DNA of 64,000 bases from a bacterium (GTDB lineage: Bacteria > JADJOY01). Position 1 is the first letter of the stretch. Every line of letters starts with the position of its first letter. A model generated the notes under the pieces. It saw nothing but the letters and a program-made list of their open reading frames with translations. It searched no databases and was not told the DNA's origin. A program made the translations under genes and the position numbers. Shown here piece after piece: positions 11,277-56,631 of the stretch. The stretch covers positions 124,001 through 188,000 of the forward strand of contig JAXLQJ010000005.1 of assembly GCA_046331705.1 (NCBI GenBank), read 5' to 3'.

Positions 11277-11657
11277 TCAGTGGCCCGCGTGGGCGCCGTG
11301 CTCGCCAGCGGGCTGCGCGACCTTGTCGGGATGAGTCAGCTTGCCGACGTGGTCCACGATGGAAGTCGCGGTGGGCGTCAGCAACAGCACGAAGAAGAAG
11401 CCGACCGTCAATCCCAGCACCGCGAAGATCGTCTTGCGTTCCGAGAGCAGGTGCATGAAGTACGCGGCCACCAACGAGCCCTTGATGGTGGCGATGACCA
11501 GCGCGAGCGCGATCGCCTCGCGCTTCGGCAGATCGAGCTCCGCGACGACCACCGTCACCACGGTCAAGGCCAGCAGGCTACCGAAGACGATCAACGCCGA
11601 ACGTACGTGCTTGTCGAGGTCCGCGGCGTGGTGGTCCACAGCGTGATTCGCGCTCAT
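11277..11657 (-). CDS. coxD: Cytochrome c oxidase subunit IV (CtaF/CoxD family)
   Basis: ALVIATIKGSLVAAYFMHL signature; GGAGG RBS upstream of the ATG at 11657. Confidence 0.85.
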   Translation of the reverse strand: MSANHAVDHHAADLDKHVRSALIVFGSLLALTVVTVVVAELDLPKREAIALALVIATIKGSLVAAYFMHLLSERKTIFAVLGLTVGFFFVLLLTPTATSIVDHVGKLTHPDKVAQPAGEHGAHAGH

Positions 11658-22309: not shown

Positions 22310-22473
22310 GTTGCCGTGTGCTCTCCGGCACGCTTCTTGTGAAGCCCTAGCTTGGCGCACACGGATCGATCCGCTTCGGATCTCGGCCACGGGTGGTCGC
22401 TGCGCGGTTCCGCTCCCGGACCCGCAGGCCATTCACGCCCCGCTCGGATGCGGTTCTCACCGGATCGACACCG

Positions 22474-23790
22474 ATGACCACCCCCGAACCCCACCGCCCC
22501 ATGTCGCGATTGACCTCCGTCAGCCACACCGCCCGCTATCAGGTCGCGCTCACCCAGAGCGAGCGTCGCGAGCCCACGCTCACGCTGGTGCGCGGTCCCG
22601 GCATGGGGCGGGTTTTCCCGCTCCTGCCCAGCAAGCGCAGCTACGTGCTGGGGCGCGAGTCCACGTGTGATCTCTTCGTGGACGACCATACGGTGTCGCG
22701 CAGCCACGCGCGCTTCGACGTGCGCCAGGTCGACGGGCTCGACATCGTCGTACGCATCCGGGATCTCGGCAGCACCAACGGCACCTGGCTCAACGGCCAG
22801 CGCATCCAGGAAGCCATCGTCAACGCCGGAGACAAGATCCACGTGGGCGAGGTGATCCTGCGCTTCGACCTGCTCGACAACATCGATCGGGGATTCGCGT
22901 TCCGCGCCGCTGCCGGGGAGTCGCCGACACGCCGCAGCGACCCCCAGATCGAGGCGACCTTCCAGCGCGCCATCGCCGGGATCTGGCTCGCCTACCAGCC
23001 GATCGTGAGCTGGGTGGACCGCCGCATCATCGGCTGGGAAGCGCTGCTGCGCGCCGAGGAGCCCGGGCTCTCGGACCCGCATTCGCTGATCGCCCTCGCC
23101 GAGCGGCTGGGGCGAGTCTGGGAGGTCGGCCGGATCGCGCGCGCGCGGGCCGCCGACGCCGCCGCCGAGCTGCCGCCCGGCACGATGCTCTTCGTCAACC
23201 TGCATCCCAGCGACATCCGCGACGACGATCTCTACCAGCCCACCAGCCCGCTCTCGCGGGTCGCGCACCGCGTGGTCCTCGAGATCACCGAGCGCGCGTC
23301 GCTGGACGGCGTCAACGACCTCGACCACCGCGTCGCGCGGCTGCGGCGGCTCGGCTTCCAGATCGCCGTGGACGACCTGGGCGCGGGCTACGCCGCGCTG
23401 AGCGTGTTCGCCCAGCTCTCGCCCGAGATCGTCAAGATCGACATGGGGATCGTGCGCGACGTGCACAAGAGCCCCACCAAGGCCCGCGTGATCCGCTCGC
23501 TCGCCGACATGTGTCGCGACATGGGCGTGCGCATGATCGTGGAAGGCGTCGAGACCATCGAGGAGCAGCAGAAGGTGATCGAGCTCGGCTGCGATCTGCT
23601 CCAGGGTTACCTCTTCGCCAAGCCGGTGCGCGATCTGCCCGGCACCGAGACCCGCGTGTGCCGCTGGCCGAACGGCGAGTTCCCCGCGGAGGTCGCCGAG
23701 ACCGACCTCATGCGCGCCCGCGAGACCGACGAGCCCGAAGACCGGGATGCGCGGGGGCCGGCGGAGCTCTCCGCGGGCCTCTCGTCCTGA
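22474..23790 (+). CDS. FHA-domain + EAL c-di-GMP phosphodiesterase
   Basis: FHA: LGRE..VSRSHA..DLGSTNGTWLNG. EAL: YQPI, EALLR, VNL, EITE, DDLGAG, KID, EGVE, QGYLF. Start uncertain. Confidence 0.88.
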   Translation: MTTPEPHRPMSRLTSVSHTARYQVALTQSERREPTLTLVRGPGMGRVFPLLPSKRSYVLGRESTCDLFVDDHTVSRSHARFDVRQVDGLDIVVRIRDLGSTNGTWLNGQRIQEAIVNAGDKIHVGEVILRFDLLDNIDRGFAFRAAAGESPTRRSDPQIEATFQRAIAGIWLAYQPIVSWVDRRIIGWEALLRAEEPGLSDPHSLIALAERLGRVWEVGRIARARAADAAAELPPGTMLFVNLHPSDIRDDDLYQPTSPLSRVAHRVVLEITERASLDGVNDLDHRVARLRRLGFQIAVDDLGAGYAALSVFAQLSPEIVKIDMGIVRDVHKSPTKARVIRSLADMCRDMGVRMIVEGVETIEEQQKVIELGCDLLQGYLFAKPVRDLPGTETRVCRWPNGEFPAEVAETDLMRARETDEPEDRDARGPAELSAGLSS

Positions 23791-23845: not shown

Positions 23846-25252
23846 TCAGGCGGCGATCGCCGCCCGCAAACGCTCCAGCTCACCGGCGTGGGTGCGCACC
23901 ACCATGCGGGTGCCGTGCTCCTCGTAGGACTCGGAGAGCACCCGACAGCGCGCGTGCACCTCCGAGACCCAGCGCGCCTTCGTGTACGGCACGAAGACGT
24001 CGCCGTCCACCATCCCGCGCTCGAAGAACTCGACGATGCGCCTCCGCACCCGCTCCACGTCCGCACTGCGCTTCGCCGACACGACCAGCGCATCCGGAAA
24101 CTCGGCGGCGCACGCTTGGCGCGCGGCGTCGTCCAGCCGATCGGCCTTGTTGAGCAGCACCAGCTCCGGCGAGTCGCCGGCCTCGAGCTCGCGCAGAACG
24201 CCGCGCGTCACCTCCATGTGCTGACGAAACACGGGGTCCGATGCATCCACCACGTGCAACACGAGTGACGCCTCGCGCGCCTCGGCGAGCGTCGAGCGAA
24301 ACGACGCGACCAGCGCGTGCGGCAGCTTCTTGATGAAGCCAACCGTATCGCTCACCAGGATGCGCGGACGCGTCTCCGGGTGGAGGGCTCGCACCGTGGT
24401 GTCGAGGGTCGCGAAGAGCTTGTCCTCCACCAGCACCCCGCTGCCCGTGAGCAAGCGCATCCACGACGACTTGCCGGCGTTGGTGTAGCCGACCAGCGCG
24501 ACGGTCGCCTGCCGCGCACGGCGATCGCGGCGCGTCGCCGCCTGCTGCTCGATGACCTCGAGCTCGGCGCGCAGCTCGGCGATCCGATCGCGGATCTTGC
24601 GGCGATCCAGCTCGACGTAGGCTTCGCCGGCGCCCTTCCCACCCACCCCGCCCTTCTGGCGATCCTTGCCGATGCCGCTCTCGCGCACCCGCGGCGCCTG
24701 ATAGGTGAGCCGCGCGATCTCCACCTCGAGCGCCGCCTCGCGGCTGCGCGCGTGGCGCCGGAAGATCGCGAGGATCACCGAAGTGCGATCCAGGATCTCG
24801 GCGCCGGTGGCGCGCTCGAGATTGCGCGCCTGGGAAGGCGAGACGTCGTGGTCGAGGATCACGACCGAGGCCTTCTCGCGCGGCGGCGCGGCGGACGGGG
24901 CCTCGTGCGCTTCCCCCTCGTCGAGGTCCTCGGCGTCCGGCTCCTCGACCGGCTCGTCGACCTCGTGCTCGCGCTCCTCCGCCGCGGCGTCCTTGCTCCG
25001 GCGCTTGGGCGGGCCGATCGGGACCACGCCGGTGCCACCGGTCCAGCGCGCGAGCTCCCGCAGCTTGCCCGCGCCGACCACCGCCGAGGCGGCGAGCGAC
25101 GCGCGTCGCTGCGTCACGCGCCCCACCACGCGAACCCCGAGCGTCTTGGCGAGCCGCGCCAGCTCTTCCAGCGACGACTCGAACTCCTCGTCGGAAACGC
25201 CCGAAAGCTGGACGCCGACCAGCACTCCCACTTGCTGCGCGTTCGCGGACAT
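23846..25252 (-). CDS. hflX: GTPase HflX
   Basis: SPSQARNLE, DRT.VILAIF..HAR, GYTNAGKSS, LFATLDTT, DTVGFI, FRSTL, NKAD; acidic insertion in the N-domain. Confidence 0.93.
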   Translation of the reverse strand: MSANAQQVGVLVGVQLSGVSDEEFESSLEELARLAKTLGVRVVGRVTQRRASLAASAVVGAGKLRELARWTGGTGVVPIGPPKRRSKDAAAEEREHEVDEPVEEPDAEDLDEGEAHEAPSAAPPREKASVVILDHDVSPSQARNLERATGAEILDRTSVILAIFRRHARSREAALEVEIARLTYQAPRVRESGIGKDRQKGGVGGKGAGEAYVELDRRKIRDRIAELRAELEVIEQQAATRRDRRARQATVALVGYTNAGKSSWMRLLTGSGVLVEDKLFATLDTTVRALHPETRPRILVSDTVGFIKKLPHALVASFRSTLAEAREASLVLHVVDASDPVFRQHMEVTRGVLRELEAGDSPELVLLNKADRLDDAARQACAAEFPDALVVSAKRSADVERVRRRIVEFFERGMVDGDVFVPYTKARWVSEVHARCRVLSESYEEHGTRMVVRTHAGELERLRAAIAA

Positions 25253-25598
25253 GCCCCGCAAGATGGGCCGCCGCCCACCCCCGGGCAACCCCTCGAACCC
25301 CTCGAACCTCGAGCTCGTCGAGCGCGCGAGCGCGTGGACGCTCTCGGCTCCTCGGAGGATCCGGCGCCACGAGGTGACCGCTCCGGCTCGCTGGGACCTC
25401 GGCGACTCGCTCCGGATCCCTTCGTGTCGAAGCTCGGAGGGCTGCCTCCGCGGCGTCGACCCGTGCTCGCATTCGCGTGGTCGGGGCCTCCGGGGACCGC
25501 TGTCTTCCCGCCGCAATCCTCTACATACTTCCGCAGCTCGGCCGCGCCCTGAGCGGTCCGCGATGACGCGCAGCTCGGGTGTAGGCGATGCGAGCGTC

Positions 25599-28505
25599 AT
25601 GCGCGTCTCTCGGCTCGTCACCCGAATCGCGATCGGTGTCGCGCTCTGCGCAGCGGCACCCGCGATCAGCGACGCCCAACAGCCGAGACACGAGACGGCG
25701 GCGCTCGAGCAGCAGCTCGCGGCGACCACCGGCACCGCCCGCATTCCGGTGCTTCTCGAGCTCGCAGCGCGCAAGCGCGACCAGCCCGGAGACGTGATTC
25801 GGCTCGCCGACGAGGCGATCACGCTGCTCGCCCTCCGACCTTCGGTGGTCGACGAAGTGGCGGCGCGCAGCGCCCGCAGTTACGCGCTACAGGCACAGGG
25901 CGATTACCCGGCGGCGCTCGCGGAAGCGCAGCGGGCCGAACGTGCCGCGCGCATGACAAGGGACGACGCGCTGCTCGGCGAAGCGCTCTACCACGTGGGA
26001 CTCGCCGAGTGGCGAATGGCGCGCTATTCGGAAGCGCTCGAGCACGCCGAGCAGGCCCGCAGCCTCCAGTCGCGGCGCGGCGACTCGGTGGCCCTGGTGC
26101 GCACGCTCAACCTGATCGGCGGAGTTCACCACTCGGAGGGCAGCCTCGACGCCGCGCTCGAGAGCTATCTCACCGCGCTGCGCGCGAGCGAGGCGATCGG
26201 TGACGAGCAATCGGCTGCGCGCTCACACAACAACATCGGGCTCGTCTACTGGGATCTCAAGCGCAACCAGGAGGCGCTCACCGCGCTCGAGCGGGCGCTC
26301 GCGATCCACGAGCGCGTGGGCCCGCTCGAGAACCTCGCGAACACGCTCAACAACGTGGGCATGGTGCTGCTCGAGCTCGGCCGCCCCCTCGAGGGCATCC
26401 CGTATCTGGAGCGCGCACTGGCGCTGGATCGGGAATCCGGGAACCTGTTCGGGCAAGCCAAGGACCTGAGCAACCTCGGCTGGGCGCAACAGGCGCTCCA
26501 CGAGCCGGCGCGGGCGATCGCGTTCCACGAGCAGGCGCTCGCGCTGCGAGAGCACATCGGAGACAAGGACGGAATCGTGCGCACCACGGGCGCGATCGCC
26601 GCAGTCCGGCTCGAACGCGGCGAGACCGCGGCCGCCATCGCCCTTCACGAGCAGGCGATCGCTCTCGCCGAGGAGATCGGCGATCGGCTGGACCAGATCG
26701 CGCAGCTCGAGGCGCTCGCGAAAGCCCGTGAGGTGGCTGGCGACTCGAGCGGTGCGCTGGCCGCGTATCGCCGATTTCACGAGTTGCAGACCACACTCGA
26801 CGACGAGCGCTCGAAGCGCCACGTCGCCGAGCTCGAAGCGCACTATCGACTGCGGGAGCGCGAGCACGAGCTGGCGGCAGCCGAGCAGCTCGCCGCATCG
26901 CGCAGCACGCAGCTTCGCTGGCTCTGGGCCGGTAGCGGCCTGCTCGGTGGCAGCCTCGTGCTGCTCGGTGTCCTCTACACGCTGCGAGGCCGAGCGCAGC
27001 GCGCCCTCGCCGAGTCCGAACAGCGCTACCGCGCGCTCTTCCAGAGCTCGGTCGTGCCAACCTTTCTGATCGAGAGCGGCACGCGCCGCGTGCTCGACCT
27101 CAACGATCCCGCCCGAGCCCTGTGCGGCGGACGATCGGCGGCGACGACGCAGACGATCGACACCCTCGAGCCGCAGTGGATTCGCCAGGCGCTGTGCCGC
27201 GCGCTCGACACGGCCACGGTGGGCGAGCCGCTCGCCGTGGACGACTGCGCGAGCGAGCCCTCGGGCCAAACCCGCTGGACCGAGATCCGCGGCAGCGCGG
27301 TGGCGCTCTCCGGCCGTGCGTGCCGACTGGTGAGCATCCGCGACATCACCAAGTCGCGCATTCAGGAGGAGGCGCTTCAGCGCGACGCCAAGATGCAATC
27401 GCTCGGCGCCCTCGCCGGAGGCATCGCCCACGACTTCAACAACGCGCTCACCGGAATCATCGGCCACGTGTCGCTGGCACGGGAAGGCGAGCCGCATGAG
27501 CGGGCGGAGATGCTCGATCTCGCGGAGAAGGCGGCGCTCGGCGCGCGCCGCCTCACCAATCAACTGCTCGCGTTCGCTCGTGGAGGGCAACCCGCGCGCC
27601 GCCCCACCAACACCGGACGGCTCCTCCGCGACGCCGTGGCGCTGGCCGGGGCCGGCTCGCACATGCGCGTGGACTACGAGATCCCCGACGACCTGTGGCC
27701 CGCTCACGTCGACGCCAGCCAGTTCAGCCAGGTCGTCAGCAATCTCGTCGTCAACGCGCAGCAGGCGACCGCCCAGGGTGGGCGGCTGGTGGTCCGCGCG
27801 TCGAATTGCCAGAGCGCTCCCGTGAATGGCGGCACGACGGACGAGTCACGCTACGTACGGATCGATTTCGAGGACAACGGCAGCGGCATCGCTGACGACA
27901 TCCGCGGCCGCGTCTTCGATCCGTACTTCACCACCAAGAGTGGCAACAACGGTCTCGGGCTCACGACCGCGTTCACGATCTGCCGCAACCACGGGGGCGC
28001 GCTGACGTTCACCTCGCGGGTCGGCGAGGGCACGACGTTCAGCGCGTACTTCCCGGCAGCGAGCGAGCCCGTCGCCGAGCCGGCGGCGCCACCTGCGGCA
28101 CGCCCGGTCGGTATCGGCAGCATCCTCGTGCTGGACGACGAGCCGCTGGTCCGAAACGTCCTGAAGCGCATGCTCGAGCAATGGGGCTACACCGTCGAAA
28201 CGGTCGCCGACGGGCGTGCGGCGGTGGAGCGCTACGCCGAGCGCTTGGAGCGCGGCGCCCCATTCGATCTCCTGATCATGGACCTCACCATTCCCGGCGG
28301 CATGGGCGGCCGGCAGGCGATCACCGAGATCCTCGCGATCGATCCGCGAGCGCGCGCCGTGGTCGCGAGCGGCTACTCCGATGACCCGACGATGTCCCAG
28401 TATCGGGAGGCGGGCTTCATCGCCGCCCTCGCCAAGCCGTTCCGCAAGGCCGAGCTGGCGCAAATCCTCGAAGCCGCGATGCCGAGTCCCTCTGCCCCGA
28501 GCTGA
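25599..28505 (+). CDS. Hybrid sensor histidine kinase: exported TPR sensor, TM, PAS, HisKA, HATPase, receiver
   Basis: Signal peptide; repeated A..xNNxG TPR units; TM; LAGGIAHDFNNAL; NLVVNA, DNGSG, FDPYFTTK, GLGL; REC ILVLDDE..MDL..AKP. Confidence 0.9.
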   Translation: MRVSRLVTRIAIGVALCAAAPAISDAQQPRHETAALEQQLAATTGTARIPVLLELAARKRDQPGDVIRLADEAITLLALRPSVVDEVAARSARSYALQAQGDYPAALAEAQRAERAARMTRDDALLGEALYHVGLAEWRMARYSEALEHAEQARSLQSRRGDSVALVRTLNLIGGVHHSEGSLDAALESYLTALRASEAIGDEQSAARSHNNIGLVYWDLKRNQEALTALERALAIHERVGPLENLANTLNNVGMVLLELGRPLEGIPYLERALALDRESGNLFGQAKDLSNLGWAQQALHEPARAIAFHEQALALREHIGDKDGIVRTTGAIAAVRLERGETAAAIALHEQAIALAEEIGDRLDQIAQLEALAKAREVAGDSSGALAAYRRFHELQTTLDDERSKRHVAELEAHYRLREREHELAAAEQLAASRSTQLRWLWAGSGLLGGSLVLLGVLYTLRGRAQRALAESEQRYRALFQSSVVPTFLIESGTRRVLDLNDPARALCGGRSAATTQTIDTLEPQWIRQALCRALDTATVGEPLAVDDCASEPSGQTRWTEIRGSAVALSGRACRLVSIRDITKSRIQEEALQRDAKMQSLGALAGGIAHDFNNALTGIIGHVSLAREGEPHERAEMLDLAEKAALGARRLTNQLLAFARGGQPARRPTNTGRLLRDAVALAGAGSHMRVDYEIPDDLWPAHVDASQFSQVVSNLVVNAQQATAQGGRLVVRASNCQSAPVNGGTTDESRYVRIDFEDNGSGIADDIRGRVFDPYFTTKSGNNGLGLTTAFTICRNHGGALTFTSRVGEGTTFSAYFPAASEPVAEPAAPPAARPVGIGSILVLDDEPLVRNVLKRMLEQWGYTVETVADGRAAVERYAERLERGAPFDLLIMDLTIPGGMGGRQAITEILAIDPRARAVVASGYSDDPTMSQYREAGFIAALAKPFRKAELAQILEAAMPSPSAPS

Positions 28506-28542
28506 GCGTCCTGCACAACGTCAGCGACGAGAGCGCGCGCTC

Positions 28543-28576
28543 GGTACGTGCGGGCGGGGCACCCGCCGCACGTACC
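28543..28576. repeat. GC-rich inverted repeat (hairpin) downstream of the kinase gene
   Basis: GGTACGTGCG..CGCACGTACC arms with an inner GCGGG/CCCGC stem; no U-tract. Confidence 0.6.
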
Positions 28577-28949
28577 CGCCGCACGGTCGGAGGACCGACT
28601 CCACGCCGACGCGGACCGTGCGCTCACGACGCGCACGCACGCCCCCGAGGAAGCCGCCCGGAGGTGCCCGCCCGGAGGTGCCACCTTCGAGCCGGCGATC
28701 TCTGCTGCCTCCGAGCAGCACGAGCGGGTGCACGCGATCGGGTCGCAGCAAGCTCCGGCGGAGCGAGATCTCGCGCCCACTCGCTGTGTCATCTGCGTCA
28801 CGTTTCTGGCCTCCGTGTGTCGAATCTGAACGGGCTGGTTCGGCAGCTCGAGACCGGATTCGTGCTCCCGCGCGCGATGCACGCGAGCGCGCCTCGGAAA
28901 TCACGAGACTTTTTCGGGTGTGGGGCCCGGGGACGAGTCGATGGCTCCC

Positions 28950-28964
28950 TGGCACCTCGCTTGC
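28950..28964 (+). promoter_or_regulatory. sigma54 (-24/-12) promoter
   Basis: TGGCAC-CTCGC-TTGC, an exact TGGCAC-N5-TTGC consensus, located in an intergenic region. Confidence 0.75.
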
Positions 28965-28975
28965 GATGGGGTCAG

Positions 28976-29074
28976 GGCACTTCGCGAATCCCTCTCCCCA
29001 GGGTCGCGCCGACTGCGCGAGACCGGCCTCCGAGCCCCGCTTCCCAGCGAGGCTCGCGAGGTCGGTCCTTTTTT
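28976..29074 (+). ncRNA. Putative sigma54-dependent small RNA (~100 nt, three stem-loops, C-rich loops)
   Basis: Lies between the sigma54 promoter and an intrinsic terminator; hairpins CCCT-CTCCCC-AGGG, TCGCGC-CGACT-GCGCGA and the long terminator stem; no credible ORF. Confidence 0.6.
29021..29074 (+). terminator. Rho-independent terminator
   Basis: GACCGGCCTC/GAGGTCGGTC + CGAGCC/GGCTCG + CGCT/AGCG stem, TCCC loop, followed by TTTTTT. Confidence 0.8.
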
Positions 29075-29154
29075 GTGTGGCCTTCGCTCCTGCGTCGTCC
29101 TTGCGTGCGCTCGTCGGAGCATGCGAAACCCGCTCGCGAGCGGACGAGCGGGTT

Positions 29155-30246
29155 GTGAACTTCCGAGCTTCCCACGGCACCGCCCGACGGGCAGGAATCG
29201 CGGCGCTCGTCCTCACGGCGCTGGTCGCGGCGAGCTGCGAATCGAACGCACCCACCGCCCCCGCGGACTGTTTCGACCCCCGAGCGTGCAGCCTCGCCGA
29301 CGCCGCTGCGACCGCGGGCATTCGCGTGGGCGTGGCCGCCGCACCGGGCGATCTCGCCGTCGAGACGCTGGTCACGCGCGAATTCGACGCGCTCAGCCTC
29401 GAAGGCGAGCTGCTCTGGGAACACGTCCACCCTGCGCGTGACCGCTGGGACTTCGACGCCGCCGATCGCACCCTCGCGTTCGCGGCGGCGCATCACCTGG
29501 AAACGACCGCTACGCACTTTCTGTGGGACCAGGCGGTGCCCATCAGCTCCACCCCCGACTGGGTGAAGGCGATCACCGATCCCGACGAGCTGCGGGCGGT
29601 GATGCGCGAGCACATGCGCATGCTGGGCCAGCGCTACGGCAAACAGGTGACGCGCTGGAACGTCGTCAACGAGCCGCACCGCTACTTCGACGACGTTCTC
29701 TATCCCAACCACTTCCACCGCGTGCTCGGTCCGGACTACATCGCGGAGGCGTTCCGGATCGCCGCCGACGAGGCGCCGCGATCCCAACGCTGGCTCAACG
29801 AGATCCTCACCGAGTACGAGCCCAAGAAGGCGGACGCGCTGGTGCGGCTGGCGCGCGATCTGGTGGAACGCGGCGTTCCGATCGACGGCGTGAGCCTCCA
29901 AGGCCATCTCTTCGTGGGCGAGGCGGACTGGGAGATCGTGCGCGACACGCTGGCGCGGCTCTCGGCCCTCGGCCTCGCGACCGGGTTCTCCGAGGTGGAC
30001 GTGCCGGTGCTGCCGTTCTCGCCGGATCGGCTCCAGATTCAGGCCGACCGCACCGTTCGCCTCATCGACGCGTGCCTCGCCGCGCCGCGCTGCGGCTCGA
30101 TCACCTGGTGGGGGATCGACGACTCCGTCTCGTGGCTGAACTGGTTTCTCGCGCCAGGGCTTTCGCCGTTGCTCTTCGACGAGTCCCTCGCACCCAAACC
30201 CGCCTACTTCGCCGCCAAGGAACGCCTCTTCCGCGGCCGCGAATGA
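29155..30246 (+). CDS. Glycoside hydrolase family 10 (endo-1,4-beta-xylanase-like) lipoprotein
   Basis: Lipobox VAASC; WNVVNEP acid/base; GPDYIAEAF; IDGVSLQGH; FSEVDV nucleophile; WGIDD..SW; PKPAY. Confidence 0.82.
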   Translation: MNFRASHGTARRAGIAALVLTALVAASCESNAPTAPADCFDPRACSLADAAATAGIRVGVAAAPGDLAVETLVTREFDALSLEGELLWEHVHPARDRWDFDAADRTLAFAAAHHLETTATHFLWDQAVPISSTPDWVKAITDPDELRAVMREHMRMLGQRYGKQVTRWNVVNEPHRYFDDVLYPNHFHRVLGPDYIAEAFRIAADEAPRSQRWLNEILTEYEPKKADALVRLARDLVERGVPIDGVSLQGHLFVGEADWEIVRDTLARLSALGLATGFSEVDVPVLPFSPDRLQIQADRTVRLIDACLAAPRCGSITWWGIDDSVSWLNWFLAPGLSPLLFDESLAPKPAYFAAKERLFRGRE

Positions 30247-30293
30247 GGACGTCCACTCACCAGCGCGAGCGGCGCGAGCGGCGCATTCGCAGC

Positions 30294-31082
30294 TCAGCGG
30301 AACCAGCTCGCGAATCGCTGCGTCGCCGCTCGAAACAGACCCGACTCTGGGGGCCGCGGCGGTTCCGCCTGCCGCAGCGGATGATCACCAAGATCCGGCC
30401 AATACTCGCTCGGTTCGCGCGCCCAGGGCGCGCGATGCCGCGGATTGCGCGGATCCCGCCCTTCGAAACTCGCCTGGGCCTCACAATCGTGCAGCACCGA
30501 CGAAACGTCACTCGCCACTCGCTCCAGAAAGGACGCGGCCGTCTTCGCCAGCGGATGGATCACGTTGCGGCGCGACTCGGGTGCAAGGTAGTGCACGTGA
30601 CCGGCGCGATCGCCGCTTCGAACGAGCGTCAAGAAGCCGTGGCTCGACGAGCAGCCGAAGACGAGCCAAGAATCGTCGGGCGGGTAGATCGAAGCGGCGG
30701 CCGTCCACTTGTTGCGCTCGACGATCCACCGAAGATCACCGCCAGGCTGAAGGCGCCGCGTCGCGGGAAGCCAGTCGACGATGGGTAGCAGTCGGAGCAA
30801 CGGCTCCGGCCCGCGTTCCGATCGGAGGATGCAGATCTCGGCGCCGTCCGCGACGTCGTAGAGCGACCGCAATCCACCAGCGGGCAGCTCGGGCGGTCCG
30901 AGCAGCGTGGCGGCGCGCTGGAGCGCGAAGCCGGGTGGGGGTGGCCCGAGGAAGTGCTCGACGGGAACTGCAACCTCGGGCAATCCCGCGAGCTCGATCG
31001 CGGGAAAGAGCAAGCCCGGGTCGAGATCGTCGAAGAGGCTGAGGAACGAACGCGCCGTTGGCTTCCGCGGCAGGCGACTCAC
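30294..31082 (-). CDS. Hypothetical protein (weak SMI1/KNR4-like resemblance)
   Basis: GTG overlapping the GGDEF stop (GTGA); globular-looking composition; LRSLYDVADGAEI segment. Confidence 0.5.
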   Translation of the reverse strand: MSRLPRKPTARSFLSLFDDLDPGLLFPAIELAGLPEVAVPVEHFLGPPPPGFALQRAATLLGPPELPAGGLRSLYDVADGAEICILRSERGPEPLLRLLPIVDWLPATRRLQPGGDLRWIVERNKWTAAASIYPPDDSWLVFGCSSSHGFLTLVRSGDRAGHVHYLAPESRRNVIHPLAKTAASFLERVASDVSSVLHDCEAQASFEGRDPRNPRHRAPWAREPSEYWPDLGDHPLRQAEPPRPPESGLFRAATQRFASWFR

Positions 31083-32200
31083 CGGTTCTCGGTGATGTCG
31101 GTGAGGCGAGACTTCTGGCCGGGCATGGCTGCGAGGACGCGGTTGCGCCCCGACCGCTTGGCTTCGTAGAGCCACTCGTCCGCGCTCTTCAAGAGCTCGT
31201 CGGCGGTGGCGGCGTCCTCGGGAAAGGTCGCGATGCCGCCGCTCAGCGTCACGGCGCCGCGCGGCTGGCGCTCCGCGTGCGGGAACGGGTGCTTCTCGAC
31301 GAAGCGCCGGAAGCGATCGGCCATGAACTCGGCCACGTCCTTGGGCGTGCGGCGGAAGAGCACCACGAACTCCTCGCCGCCGTAGCGTGCCGACACGTCC
31401 ACGGCGCGCGGGAAGTTCTTCTTCACGAGCATCGCCAGCTCGGAGAGCACCGCGTCTCCCGCGGGATGGCCGTTGGTGTCGTTGTAGTGCTTGAACCAGT
31501 CGATGTCGAAGAGGAAGAGCGAGAGCTGCTTGCCGGTGTCGCGCGCCTCCTCGACCTCGCGCGCGAGATTGTCGAGGAAATAGCGCTTGTTCTTGAGACC
31601 GGTGAGCGAGTCGGACTCGGCGCGCTCCTCGAGCTGGCGCGTGAGCGCCGCCTGCTTGAGCGCCGTGCCCGCCACCACGCCGAGGCTCGCGAGCAAGCTC
31701 TTGGTACCCGGTGTCAGGCCCGGCTCGACGCCGCCCATCGCGACGACGCCCAGCACCTCGCGCTCCCACACGATCGGCGCGGCCACGTCGAGCCCGTCGT
31801 CGCAGGGGCGAACGGGACGGCGCTCACGATCGTTGATCGCGAACAGGCCACGCGCCGCGTCGCGGCTCACCACCACGGCGCCCATCGCCGCCCGGCCCAC
31901 GAGCCCGATGCCGGGCTCGACGTCGAAGCTGCTGCGCCGGTCCTGCTCGTAACCCTTGAGCGCCCGCGGCTCGACGGGTCCGCCGCGCTGAGCGCGCAGC
32001 AGCACGATGATCCGGCGCGGCTGGAAGAGCGTGTCCACCGCCTCCAGCAAGACGTCGGGGATGTCGCGTTCGGGAAGCCGCCGCGAGAATCCGCGCAGCA
32101 CTTCGGGCAAGCGGTGGACGCGCTCGACGAGATGGCTGTACGCCGAGCGCGCGACCCCACCGTGGTCGCCCCCACTGCGGGAAGGTGGCTCGAACAACAT
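31079..32200 (-). CDS. GAF-domain diguanylate cyclase
   Basis: DSLTGLKN, DIDWFKHYNDTNGHPAGD, RAVD I-site, RYGGEEF, LYEAKRSGRN. Confidence 0.9.
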   Translation of the reverse strand: MLFEPPSRSGGDHGGVARSAYSHLVERVHRLPEVLRGFSRRLPERDIPDVLLEAVDTLFQPRRIIVLLRAQRGGPVEPRALKGYEQDRRSSFDVEPGIGLVGRAAMGAVVVSRDAARGLFAINDRERRPVRPCDDGLDVAAPIVWEREVLGVVAMGGVEPGLTPGTKSLLASLGVVAGTALKQAALTRQLEERAESDSLTGLKNKRYFLDNLAREVEEARDTGKQLSLFLFDIDWFKHYNDTNGHPAGDAVLSELAMLVKKNFPRAVDVSARYGGEEFVVLFRRTPKDVAEFMADRFRRFVEKHPFPHAERQPRGAVTLSGGIATFPEDAATADELLKSADEWLYEAKRSGRNRVLAAMPGQKSRLTDITENR

Positions 32201-56262: not shown

Positions 56263-56631
56263 CGTCACCTCCCGAGGCGTTCGCGCCGCGCGGCGGGCGC
56301 GAGGCCTTGCCGCGATCGAACCAGCAAGCACGGTGCCGCGGCGCGAGACCGCGAACGCGCGGCAGCGCGCAACACGACGGGCGCGGACGCCGCCCGATGC
56401 GTCTTGGCGACACGCCTGCGTGCAGCCGCAAGCGGCACGGCGAATGCCGCGCGTCGAGCGTAAGCGACGCCTGGAATTGGCCCCGCAGGTCGAACACGCG
56501 GTGCCCTGCGGACGAACGATCCACGGACCCGCGACGGAGACCGACGCCCCTTGACCCCGGCGCTCCGCGATCCGTACGATGACCGGATCCACACGATCCG
56601 CGCCATGCAGCGCGGGAAGGAGCGCGAATCC

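Follow-up and report, generated by a model that had tools for sequence, protein, structure and literature searches.

Does the unannotated DNA between a sigma-54-type promoter and a strong terminator in an uncultured wastewater bacterium encode a small regulatory RNA (sRNA), and by what means might such an RNA act? The segment in question occupies positions 28976–29074 on the forward strand of a 64,000-nt stretch of contig JAXLQJ010000005.1 (assembly GCA_046331705.1, positions 124,001–188,000), which was analyzed as a whole and is referred to here as the window. A sequence-only reading of this locus had proposed an unannotated sigma-54-dependent sRNA with C-rich loops, similar in layout to Myxococcus Pxr, or alternatively an attenuator leader of the adjoining GH10 glycoside hydrolase gene. 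We conclude that the segment very probably is a genuine gene for a small regulatory RNA, one not catalogued before. The explanation that best accounts for the evidence as a whole, and which we hold to be the probable one with some reserve, is a stand-alone gene of about 99 nt with a sigma-54 promoter and a terminator of its own, whose product would act in trans by pairing through a C-rich loop. It constitutes a new family that follows a known design and involves no new principle. As such, it would give an uncultured phylum of wastewater bacteria, whose genomes are large and signalling-rich, a first post-transcriptional regulator that can be put to the test.

The genome that holds the window (G000; the window's contig, C5, measures 252 kb) comprises 8.17 Mb at 70% G+C and is 95.7% complete. 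Its phylum is represented in our collection by six species genomes (G000 to G005), and the same six are returned at the family, order, class and phylum levels. The organism has so far been recovered in metagenomes only. At least half of the sampled words from window DNA at 27500–30500 were found in each of 14 DNA runs, which belong to 10 studies covering activated sludge, digesters and wastewater and may include the source run.

Conservation of the promoter and RNA as one unit

A DNA search of 61 genomes yielded three real matches, namely, G002 and G003 from the same genus (90% identity over 126 nt and 79% over 80 nt, respectively) and G005 from another genus of the family (78% over 123 nt), all other matches being short and having E > 0.001. 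From the RNAs of G000, G002, G003 and G005 we built a covariance model, R1, which scores 93–122 bits on these four sequences and identifies a single copy per genome, with no paralogues. The RNA is thus kept together with its promoter in four of the six phylum genomes, as anticipated if the proposed unit is genuine, and the unit, from promoter to terminator, is unannotated as originally described, with no Rfam family at threshold. It contains no reading frame.

To localize the conservation, we counted invariant columns in the four-way alignment. Conservation switches on at the predicted start, at the GGG of 28975–28977, is strongest in the 5' domain and falls off across the terminator: 7 of 47 columns are invariant upstream (–70 to –27), 11 of 14 in the promoter (GGCAC..TTGC), none of 10 in the spacer from TTGC to GGG, 42 of 54 in RNA nucleotides 1–52, 15 of 43 in the rest of the terminator, 4 of 6 in the U-tract, and 4 of 47 downstream of the RNA.

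Beyond these genomes, an exact-pattern scan for the core motif retrieved 13 loci on metagenome contigs and 18 on genome contigs, of which only four score at least 93 bits with R1, that is, the three known relatives and locus L037, which over 3266 nt shares 100% identity with the G005 locus and is identical to L038. Across 185,579 species genomes, the core motif was confined to this phylum, and R1 produced no matches in a sample of 151 genomes belonging to the phylum of a 'Myxococcales' metagenome-assembled genome. R1 likewise had no match in G001 and G004, which are 89% and 74% complete and broken into 990 and 850 contigs, and in which the locus of hflX, the constant neighbor of the RNA, ends at a contig break, so that absence is not demonstrated. 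Contigs end at or inside the 5' end of hflX in G001 (C818), G002 (C521) and G004 (C266); the region of the kinase gene (described below) and the RNA seems hard to assemble in these three fragmented relatives, perhaps due to strain differences.

A sigma-54-type promoter class and its one apparent direct RNA output

The promoter is exactly the TGGCAC-N5-TTGC element initially recognized, on the forward strand at 28950–28964 (TGGCAC at 28950–28955, spacer CTCGC, TTGC at 28961–28964), with the GG and GC dinucleotides at 28951–28952 and 28963–28964. With the C of TTGC at –12, following the established sigma-54 geometry, transcription would start around 28976, within the GGG of 28975–28977. The conserved –24 GG and –12 GC elements lie at the right distance from the predicted RNA 5' end for the sigma-54 functional class, and G000 encodes the sigma factor itself in one rpoN gene. 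Sigma-54 dependence of the RNA appears likely.

The strict motif alone is not rare, occurring 12 times in the whole 8.17-Mb genome compared to 5–12 times for the spacings N3, N4, N6 and N7. The site stands above chance because it is conserved in the relatives and because of the genome-wide behavior of the relaxed motif, GGCAC-N5-TTGC. Using the codon-position G+C periodicity around each site to distinguish coding-like from non-coding-like DNA, we found 65 of the 80 relaxed sites in non-coding-like DNA, compared with 5/42 for N2, 14/58 for N3, 16/106 for N4, 9/61 for N6, 13/106 for N7 and 10/51 for N8; in a random control, 14% of 3000 positions lacked periodicity. GGCAC-N5-TTGC, therefore, behaves as a true promoter class would in G000. 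The Sigma54_activat domain has 49 matches in this genome, 44 of them at E <= 1e-37, corresponding to about 44 activator genes.

Among 73 sigma-54-like sites in G000, only that of the sRNA has a strong terminator in the roughly 330 nt that follow. As the one sigma-54 promoter in the genome that leads directly to such a terminator, it suggests that a signalling pathway is dedicated to producing an RNA, and it makes the locus a clean candidate for experiment.

Several other sites of this type are of separate note. The window contains a second sigma-54-type promoter, CGGCAC-N5-TTGC, on the reverse strand at 56323–56337; about 65 nt downstream of it come a GGGAGG ribosome-binding site and the ATG/GTG start of a gene whose product has a hydrophobic N-terminus. 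Elsewhere in G000, csrA (C34:35359–35514) is followed about 190 nt later by a same-strand GGCAC-N5-TTGC at C34:35704 (region C34:35359–35720). A sigma-54-like GGTAC-N5-TTGC, with T in place of C, is located about 30–55 nt upstream of a gene encoding a ResB/CcsA cytochrome c assembly fusion and is retained in five genomes of the phylum (G000:C8, at about 11350–11370, and L073, L074, L075 and L076).

Structure of the RNA

The candidate RNA is encoded in a single copy and is predicted to be strongly folded: a 103-nt stretch reaches –54.2 kcal/mol (z = –4.13), and none of 200 dinucleotide shuffles folds as well. Over the whole structure, 93.5% of the alignment cells are paired, compared to 25–47% when the 3' partners are slid by 1–3 columns. 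The unit ends in an intrinsic terminator (29021–29074), in which a long bulged stem (29021–29067, apical loop UCCC) is followed by a C and six T residues (29069–29074), confirming the strong terminator of the sequence-only reading; the U-tract is present in all four genomes. Three of the 18 stem pairs show compensatory changes and six show one-sided changes, with 90% of the cells paired. A simple terminator scanner listed no terminator between 27500 and 30500, a miss that we attribute to stem rules that overlook a long bulged stem.

The 5' part contains two further potential hairpins. Hairpin 1 (28990–29003) has an invariant CCC/GGG stem (28990–28992 with 29001–29003) and the loop UCUCCCCA, which shortens to CUCCCC if a U-A pair closes; the loop is C-rich in all four genomes, and, with its CUCCCC core at 28994–28999, is predicted to be unpaired in every fold of all four sequences. 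Hairpin 2 (29004–29020) consists of six invariant pairs, UCGCGC with GCGCGA (29004–29009 with 29015–29020), enclosing a variable 5-nt loop; the loop reads CGACU in the window and UUCAC or CUCGU in other genomes, a pattern of variation between invariant arms that fits a hairpin. The three-hairpin fold originally proposed is possible, but a nested alternative, in which a 5' CGCGA (28983–28987) pairs with the UCGCG of the hairpin-2 5' arm so that hairpins 1 and 2 merge into one domain, is more stable by 2–4 kcal/mol in all four sequences. The earlier description of C-rich loops also survives in part: CUCCCC is conserved in all four genomes, whereas the terminator loop UCCC and the hairpin-2 loop are not.

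Relation to known small RNAs

In the 64-kb window, no Rfam family reached its gathering score, and the proposed scan for Pxr returned only four chance-level matches at E <= 10, none of them to Pxr, the presence of a Pxr model in Rfam 15 being unverified. The best Rfam alignment is to Scr3202 (RF02833), a Streptomyces sRNA, and it extends over the full length (model positions 1–95) with the C-rich loops and terminator in register. However, its score of 26.4 bits falls short of the gathering score of 52 (E = 0.17 in an 801-nt search), and the resemblance is one of composition and layout rather than family membership.

Pxr, known from Myxococcus xanthus and other myxobacteria, is the nearest counterpart as regards layout and promoter type. 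Myxococcus, like G000, has many sigma-54 activators and is not known to encode Hfq. The pxr gene of Myxococcus xanthus is reported to be 108 nt long, apparently to be transcribed from a sigma-54 promoter, to form multiple stem-loops and to lie downstream of the activator gene nla19 (PMC5568312). The RNA described here shares the size of about 100 nt, the sigma-54 promoter and a possible three-stem-loop fold, even if the nested fold is the more stable one. Unlike pxr, it has hflX as its constant neighbor and no activator gene on its contig; there is no detectable homology between the two RNAs in sequence or structure, and the host belongs to a different, six-species phylum. Thus, the Pxr-like layout and promoter type hold, whereas homology and the position next to an activator gene do not.

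The probable mode of action, considered by analogy, resembles that of the C-rich-loop sRNAs, a group that also includes RsaE/RoxS and RepG. The sRNA sX13 of Xanthomonas is reported to repress mRNAs with G-rich motifs in their ribosome-binding sites through CCCC loops and not to need Hfq (PMC3771888), and 6C of Actinobacteria is reported to bind its targets through C-rich loops without chaperones (PMC6486639). The present RNA resembles sX13 in being highly structured and in carrying a CCCC motif in an apical loop, and the exposed CCCC typical of sX13 and 6C is found in the CUCCCC loop of all four genomes, where it is predicted to be unpaired. It differs from sX13 in having one conserved C-rich loop rather than two or three and a sigma-54 promoter, and in lacking any sequence relation.

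Sigma-54-dependent sRNAs with known activators include Qrr1-5 (LuxO), GlmY (GlrR) and CrcZ (CbrB), among which Qrr acts with Hfq and CrcZ sequesters Hfq/Crc. GlmY is described as a decoy for the RNA-binding protein RapZ (PMC7073468). These genes combine a –24/–12 promoter with upstream activator sites, so that the sRNA is expressed in response to a signal; the locus in the window would share this regulatory logic, with two candidate boxes as putative activator sites. It is unlike them in that neither Hfq nor ProQ was found in the 95.7% complete G000 genome and that the RNA has no Rfam match to any of the three.

Proposed mode of action and potential targets

Judged by analogy with these RNAs, pairing in trans with G-rich ribosome-binding sites would be the likeliest mechanism. 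Under an enhancer-binding protein, the sigma-54 RNA polymerase would transcribe the RNA of about 99 nt from TGGCAC-N5-TTGC, and the transcript would be ended by its own intrinsic terminator. The functional part would be the near-invariant 5' domain (nucleotides 1–52), which is predicted to display the CUCCCC loop in every fold. Acting in trans without Hfq, this loop would bind G-rich stretches of the GGGGAG type in or close to ribosome-binding sites, and such pairing would lower the translation or stability of the target mRNAs once the sigma-54 activator is switched on. We infer all of this, from transcription itself and its dependence on sigma-54 and an activator to the action in trans, the pairing loop and the targets, from the sequence. 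The sX13-type model is the best supported because CUCCCC is the only conserved single-stranded element; still, we put forward loop-mediated pairing with mRNAs only tentatively.

A search for complementary sites identified 81 sites in G000, besides the sRNA locus itself, with at least 9 contiguous bases complementary to the RNA. About 12 of these, by our reading of the flanking sequences, are located 2–11 nt before an ATG, although a purine-rich word is expected to match ribosome-binding sites anyway. The ranked candidates, whose duplex energies are overstated since the calculation let the RNA open its own stem, are heterogeneous, including ResB/CcsA, an M12B protease, EF-Tu, a methyltransferase and others. 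Of these, the ResB/CcsA fusion gene, which carries GGGGAGAGGG two bases before its ATG, is the top prediction. The target prediction envisaged in the sequence-only reading, carried out here as a complementarity search, gave no target conserved in the relatives. We also considered hflX and rejected it, given that its ribosome-binding site offers only GGGG. The same scan brought to light four near-identical repeat copies containing CCTGGGGAGAGCGCGCCCGGATGTGCTCGAT in G000 (C67:22355, C4:200658, C37:28669 and C110:514).

Nine bases of the hairpin-1 loop and stem (CUCCCCAGG) are complementary to the 16S rRNA stretch CCUGGGGAG; the corresponding 16S rRNA gene, G000:C1:283671, contains CCTGGGGAG. Because an extra C in the loop of G003 weakens this match, it is probably a coincidence. 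Nevertheless, the 16S complementarity, the anchoring next to hflX, which encodes a ribosome-splitting GTPase, and the lack of a conserved mRNA target together leave room for another reading, one that we regard as very improbable: the RNA would be the single sigma-54-controlled riboregulator of this candidate phylum, for which neither Hfq nor ProQ was found, and its invariant 52-nt domain would be a two-state switch that acts on the translation machinery rather than on individual mRNAs. If true, this would amount to a starvation- or stress-gated global brake, Pxr-like in role but different in mechanism.

Upstream boxes and the hflX side of the locus

Two short boxes upstream of the promoter are conserved in all four genomes. 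The invariant 10-mer GTCACGTTTC (28797–28806, forward strand) is a candidate activator (enhancer) site located 154–159 nt upstream of GGCAC, in surroundings that differ between the genera. Closer to the promoter, an ATCACG box followed by a T-run (28900–28915, forward strand) places ATCACG 51–54 nt upstream of GGCAC. Neither box has dyad symmetry, and the spacing of both is maintained relative to the sigma-54 promoter rather than to hflX. Such a layout would fit a sigma-54 promoter for which the distal box is an activator site and the ATCACG box a second site in between. The ATCACG box is only loosely similar to an IHF site; we rejected it as such a site, the consensus being absent and no IHF-type motif being enriched at the other 64 sigma-54 sites.

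The constant neighbor, hflX (23852–25243, reverse strand), was identified by tblastn at 71% identity to HflX of G005, and the HflX domains were detected in the copies of G003 and G005. In both of these genomes, hflX is directly divergent from the sRNA. In the window, the two are separated by a gene (3.2 kb) for a hybrid histidine kinase with TPR, HisKA, HATPase and receiver domains in Pfam (open reading frame (ORF) 24705–28505, forward strand), whereas in G003 and G005 no such gene is found in this interval, which points to either an insertion in the window genome or a loss in the other two. The first approximately 540 nt of the kinase ORF, from GTG 24705, overlap hflX on the opposite strand, so the start is probably over-called and the true one lies after 25243.

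Alternative explanations

The main competing possibility is that of a cis-acting leader, in which the sigma-54 promoter serves the downstream gene, the hairpins and terminator attenuate it, and the short RNA is a by-product. In the window, the downstream gene is that of the GH10 glycoside hydrolase (29122–30246, forward strand; Pfam Glyco_hydro_10, E 7.7e-60). Its start, as supported by G002, is ATG 29122, 47 nt after the T-run, because the alignment with the G002 protein (81% amino-acid identity) begins at residue 1; the distance of 80 nt given previously fits only GTG 29156. A co-directional ORF is similarly placed after the terminator in G002 (about 43 nt) and G003 (about 51 nt), the simple scanner found no sigma-70-like promoter between 27500 and 30500, and one contig from an RNA run starts at 29071 and runs into GH10, although a contig cannot show a start. 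All this would suit a leader, but the downstream genes are unrelated: GH10 is present in G000 and G002 only, G003 has a 135-aa ORF without a Pfam match, and in G005 the next gene is convergent, its stop overlapping the terminator. The latter gene is well conserved: each of the other genomes encodes a strong homologue at a different place, with E values of 1e-145 to 1e-193 in four of them and 1e-79 in G003. Because the downstream genes differ, with no constant linkage to a regulated gene, the sRNA is not the leader of a particular gene. Furthermore, the spacer between the terminator and the ORF is not conserved (4 of 47 columns invariant), the terminator is strong, with a U-tract in every one of the four genomes, and sequence inspection revealed no part of the conserved 5' domain that could pair with the terminator's left arm, hence no apparent antiterminator. 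We therefore consider a leader unlikely, including the GH10 attenuator suggested as the alternative in the sequence-only reading, with GH10 following in only two of the four genomes; some read-through use of the sRNA promoter into the downstream ORF is possible. A coding role was rejected as well: the GH10 frame is open back to 28381, but the indels between G000 and G002 from the terminator to the start are not multiples of three, coding periodicity at the site is low, and in two genomes the block occurs without GH10.

Other possibilities concern what the conserved sequence does rather than what follows it. An RNA whose invariant 5' domain is recognized by a protein or toggles between two folds would explain why the nine pairs of hairpins 1 and 2 and the 5' tail never change, compared to changes at 13 of the 18 pairs in the terminator stem; for three segments that contain CGCG, two pairing schemes are possible that exclude each other and lie 2–4 kcal/mol apart, which would freeze all three, and the target search by complementarity gave nothing conserved. 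On the other hand, four sequences are too few to distinguish sequence constraint from slow compensatory change, the C-rich loop, as the only conserved single-stranded element, fits pairing, and there are no repeated protein-binding motifs. A CsrA sponge, in particular, was rejected, given that the RNA contains no GGA despite the presence of csrA in G000. On balance, a protein-binding or switching RNA appears about as improbable as a leader. Much less credible is an element that functions solely as DNA, the conserved blocks being protein-binding sites of the hflX-side intergenic region. The unit does lie within the upstream region of hflX in G003 and G005, and TTCGCGAA, at about +7 to +14, is a perfect palindrome; however, in G000 the unit is still intact although the 3.2-kb kinase gene parts it from hflX, the boxes are spaced relative to the promoter, and the terminator stem shows compensatory changes, a sign that RNA structure is under selection. 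Least plausible of all is a fortuitous sigma-54-like motif beside an unrelated terminator. The 12 strict motifs in the genome, no commoner than those with other spacings, would be compatible with chance, but in two genera the promoter, start, 5' domain and terminator have been conserved together as a block, and the relaxed motifs are concentrated in non-coding-like DNA.

Several observations weigh against the stand-alone, trans-acting sRNA that we favor. The evidence comes from four distinct sequences in total. The covariation check planned in the sequence-only reading succeeded for the terminator stem, with its three compensatory changes, but the nine pairs of hairpins 1 and 2 are invariant and hence uninformative, providing no covariation support, and only one of the three loops is both conserved and C-rich. 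No activator gene accompanies the sRNA, none of the 49 Sigma54_activat matches being on the 252-kb contig C5. The GTCACGTTTC box does not define a regulon, an idea that we rejected: of its 15 copies in the genome, only that at the sRNA locus precedes a sigma-54 site, and the other 14 precede none. In three of the four genomes, a co-directional ORF follows the terminator by 43–51 nt with no separate promoter detected. The complementarity of the top target, ResB/CcsA, is lost in G001 and G002 (GGGGTGAGG) and further in G003 and G005. Finally, in four metatranscriptome runs taken from three studies, the assembled contigs reach parts of the kinase and GH10 genes at low depth and leave 28669–29070 uncovered, which provides no evidence either way on transcription.

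Neighboring signalling genes

Beyond hflX, the window contains an FHA-EAL gene (22351–23790, forward strand), in the same order as in G003 and G005. The sRNA locus is bracketed by cyclic di-GMP (c-di-GMP) genes, with this FHA-EAL gene upstream of hflX on one side and, on the other, a GAF-GGDEF gene (31079–32200) convergent with GH10; a GGDEF gene follows GH10 in G002, too.

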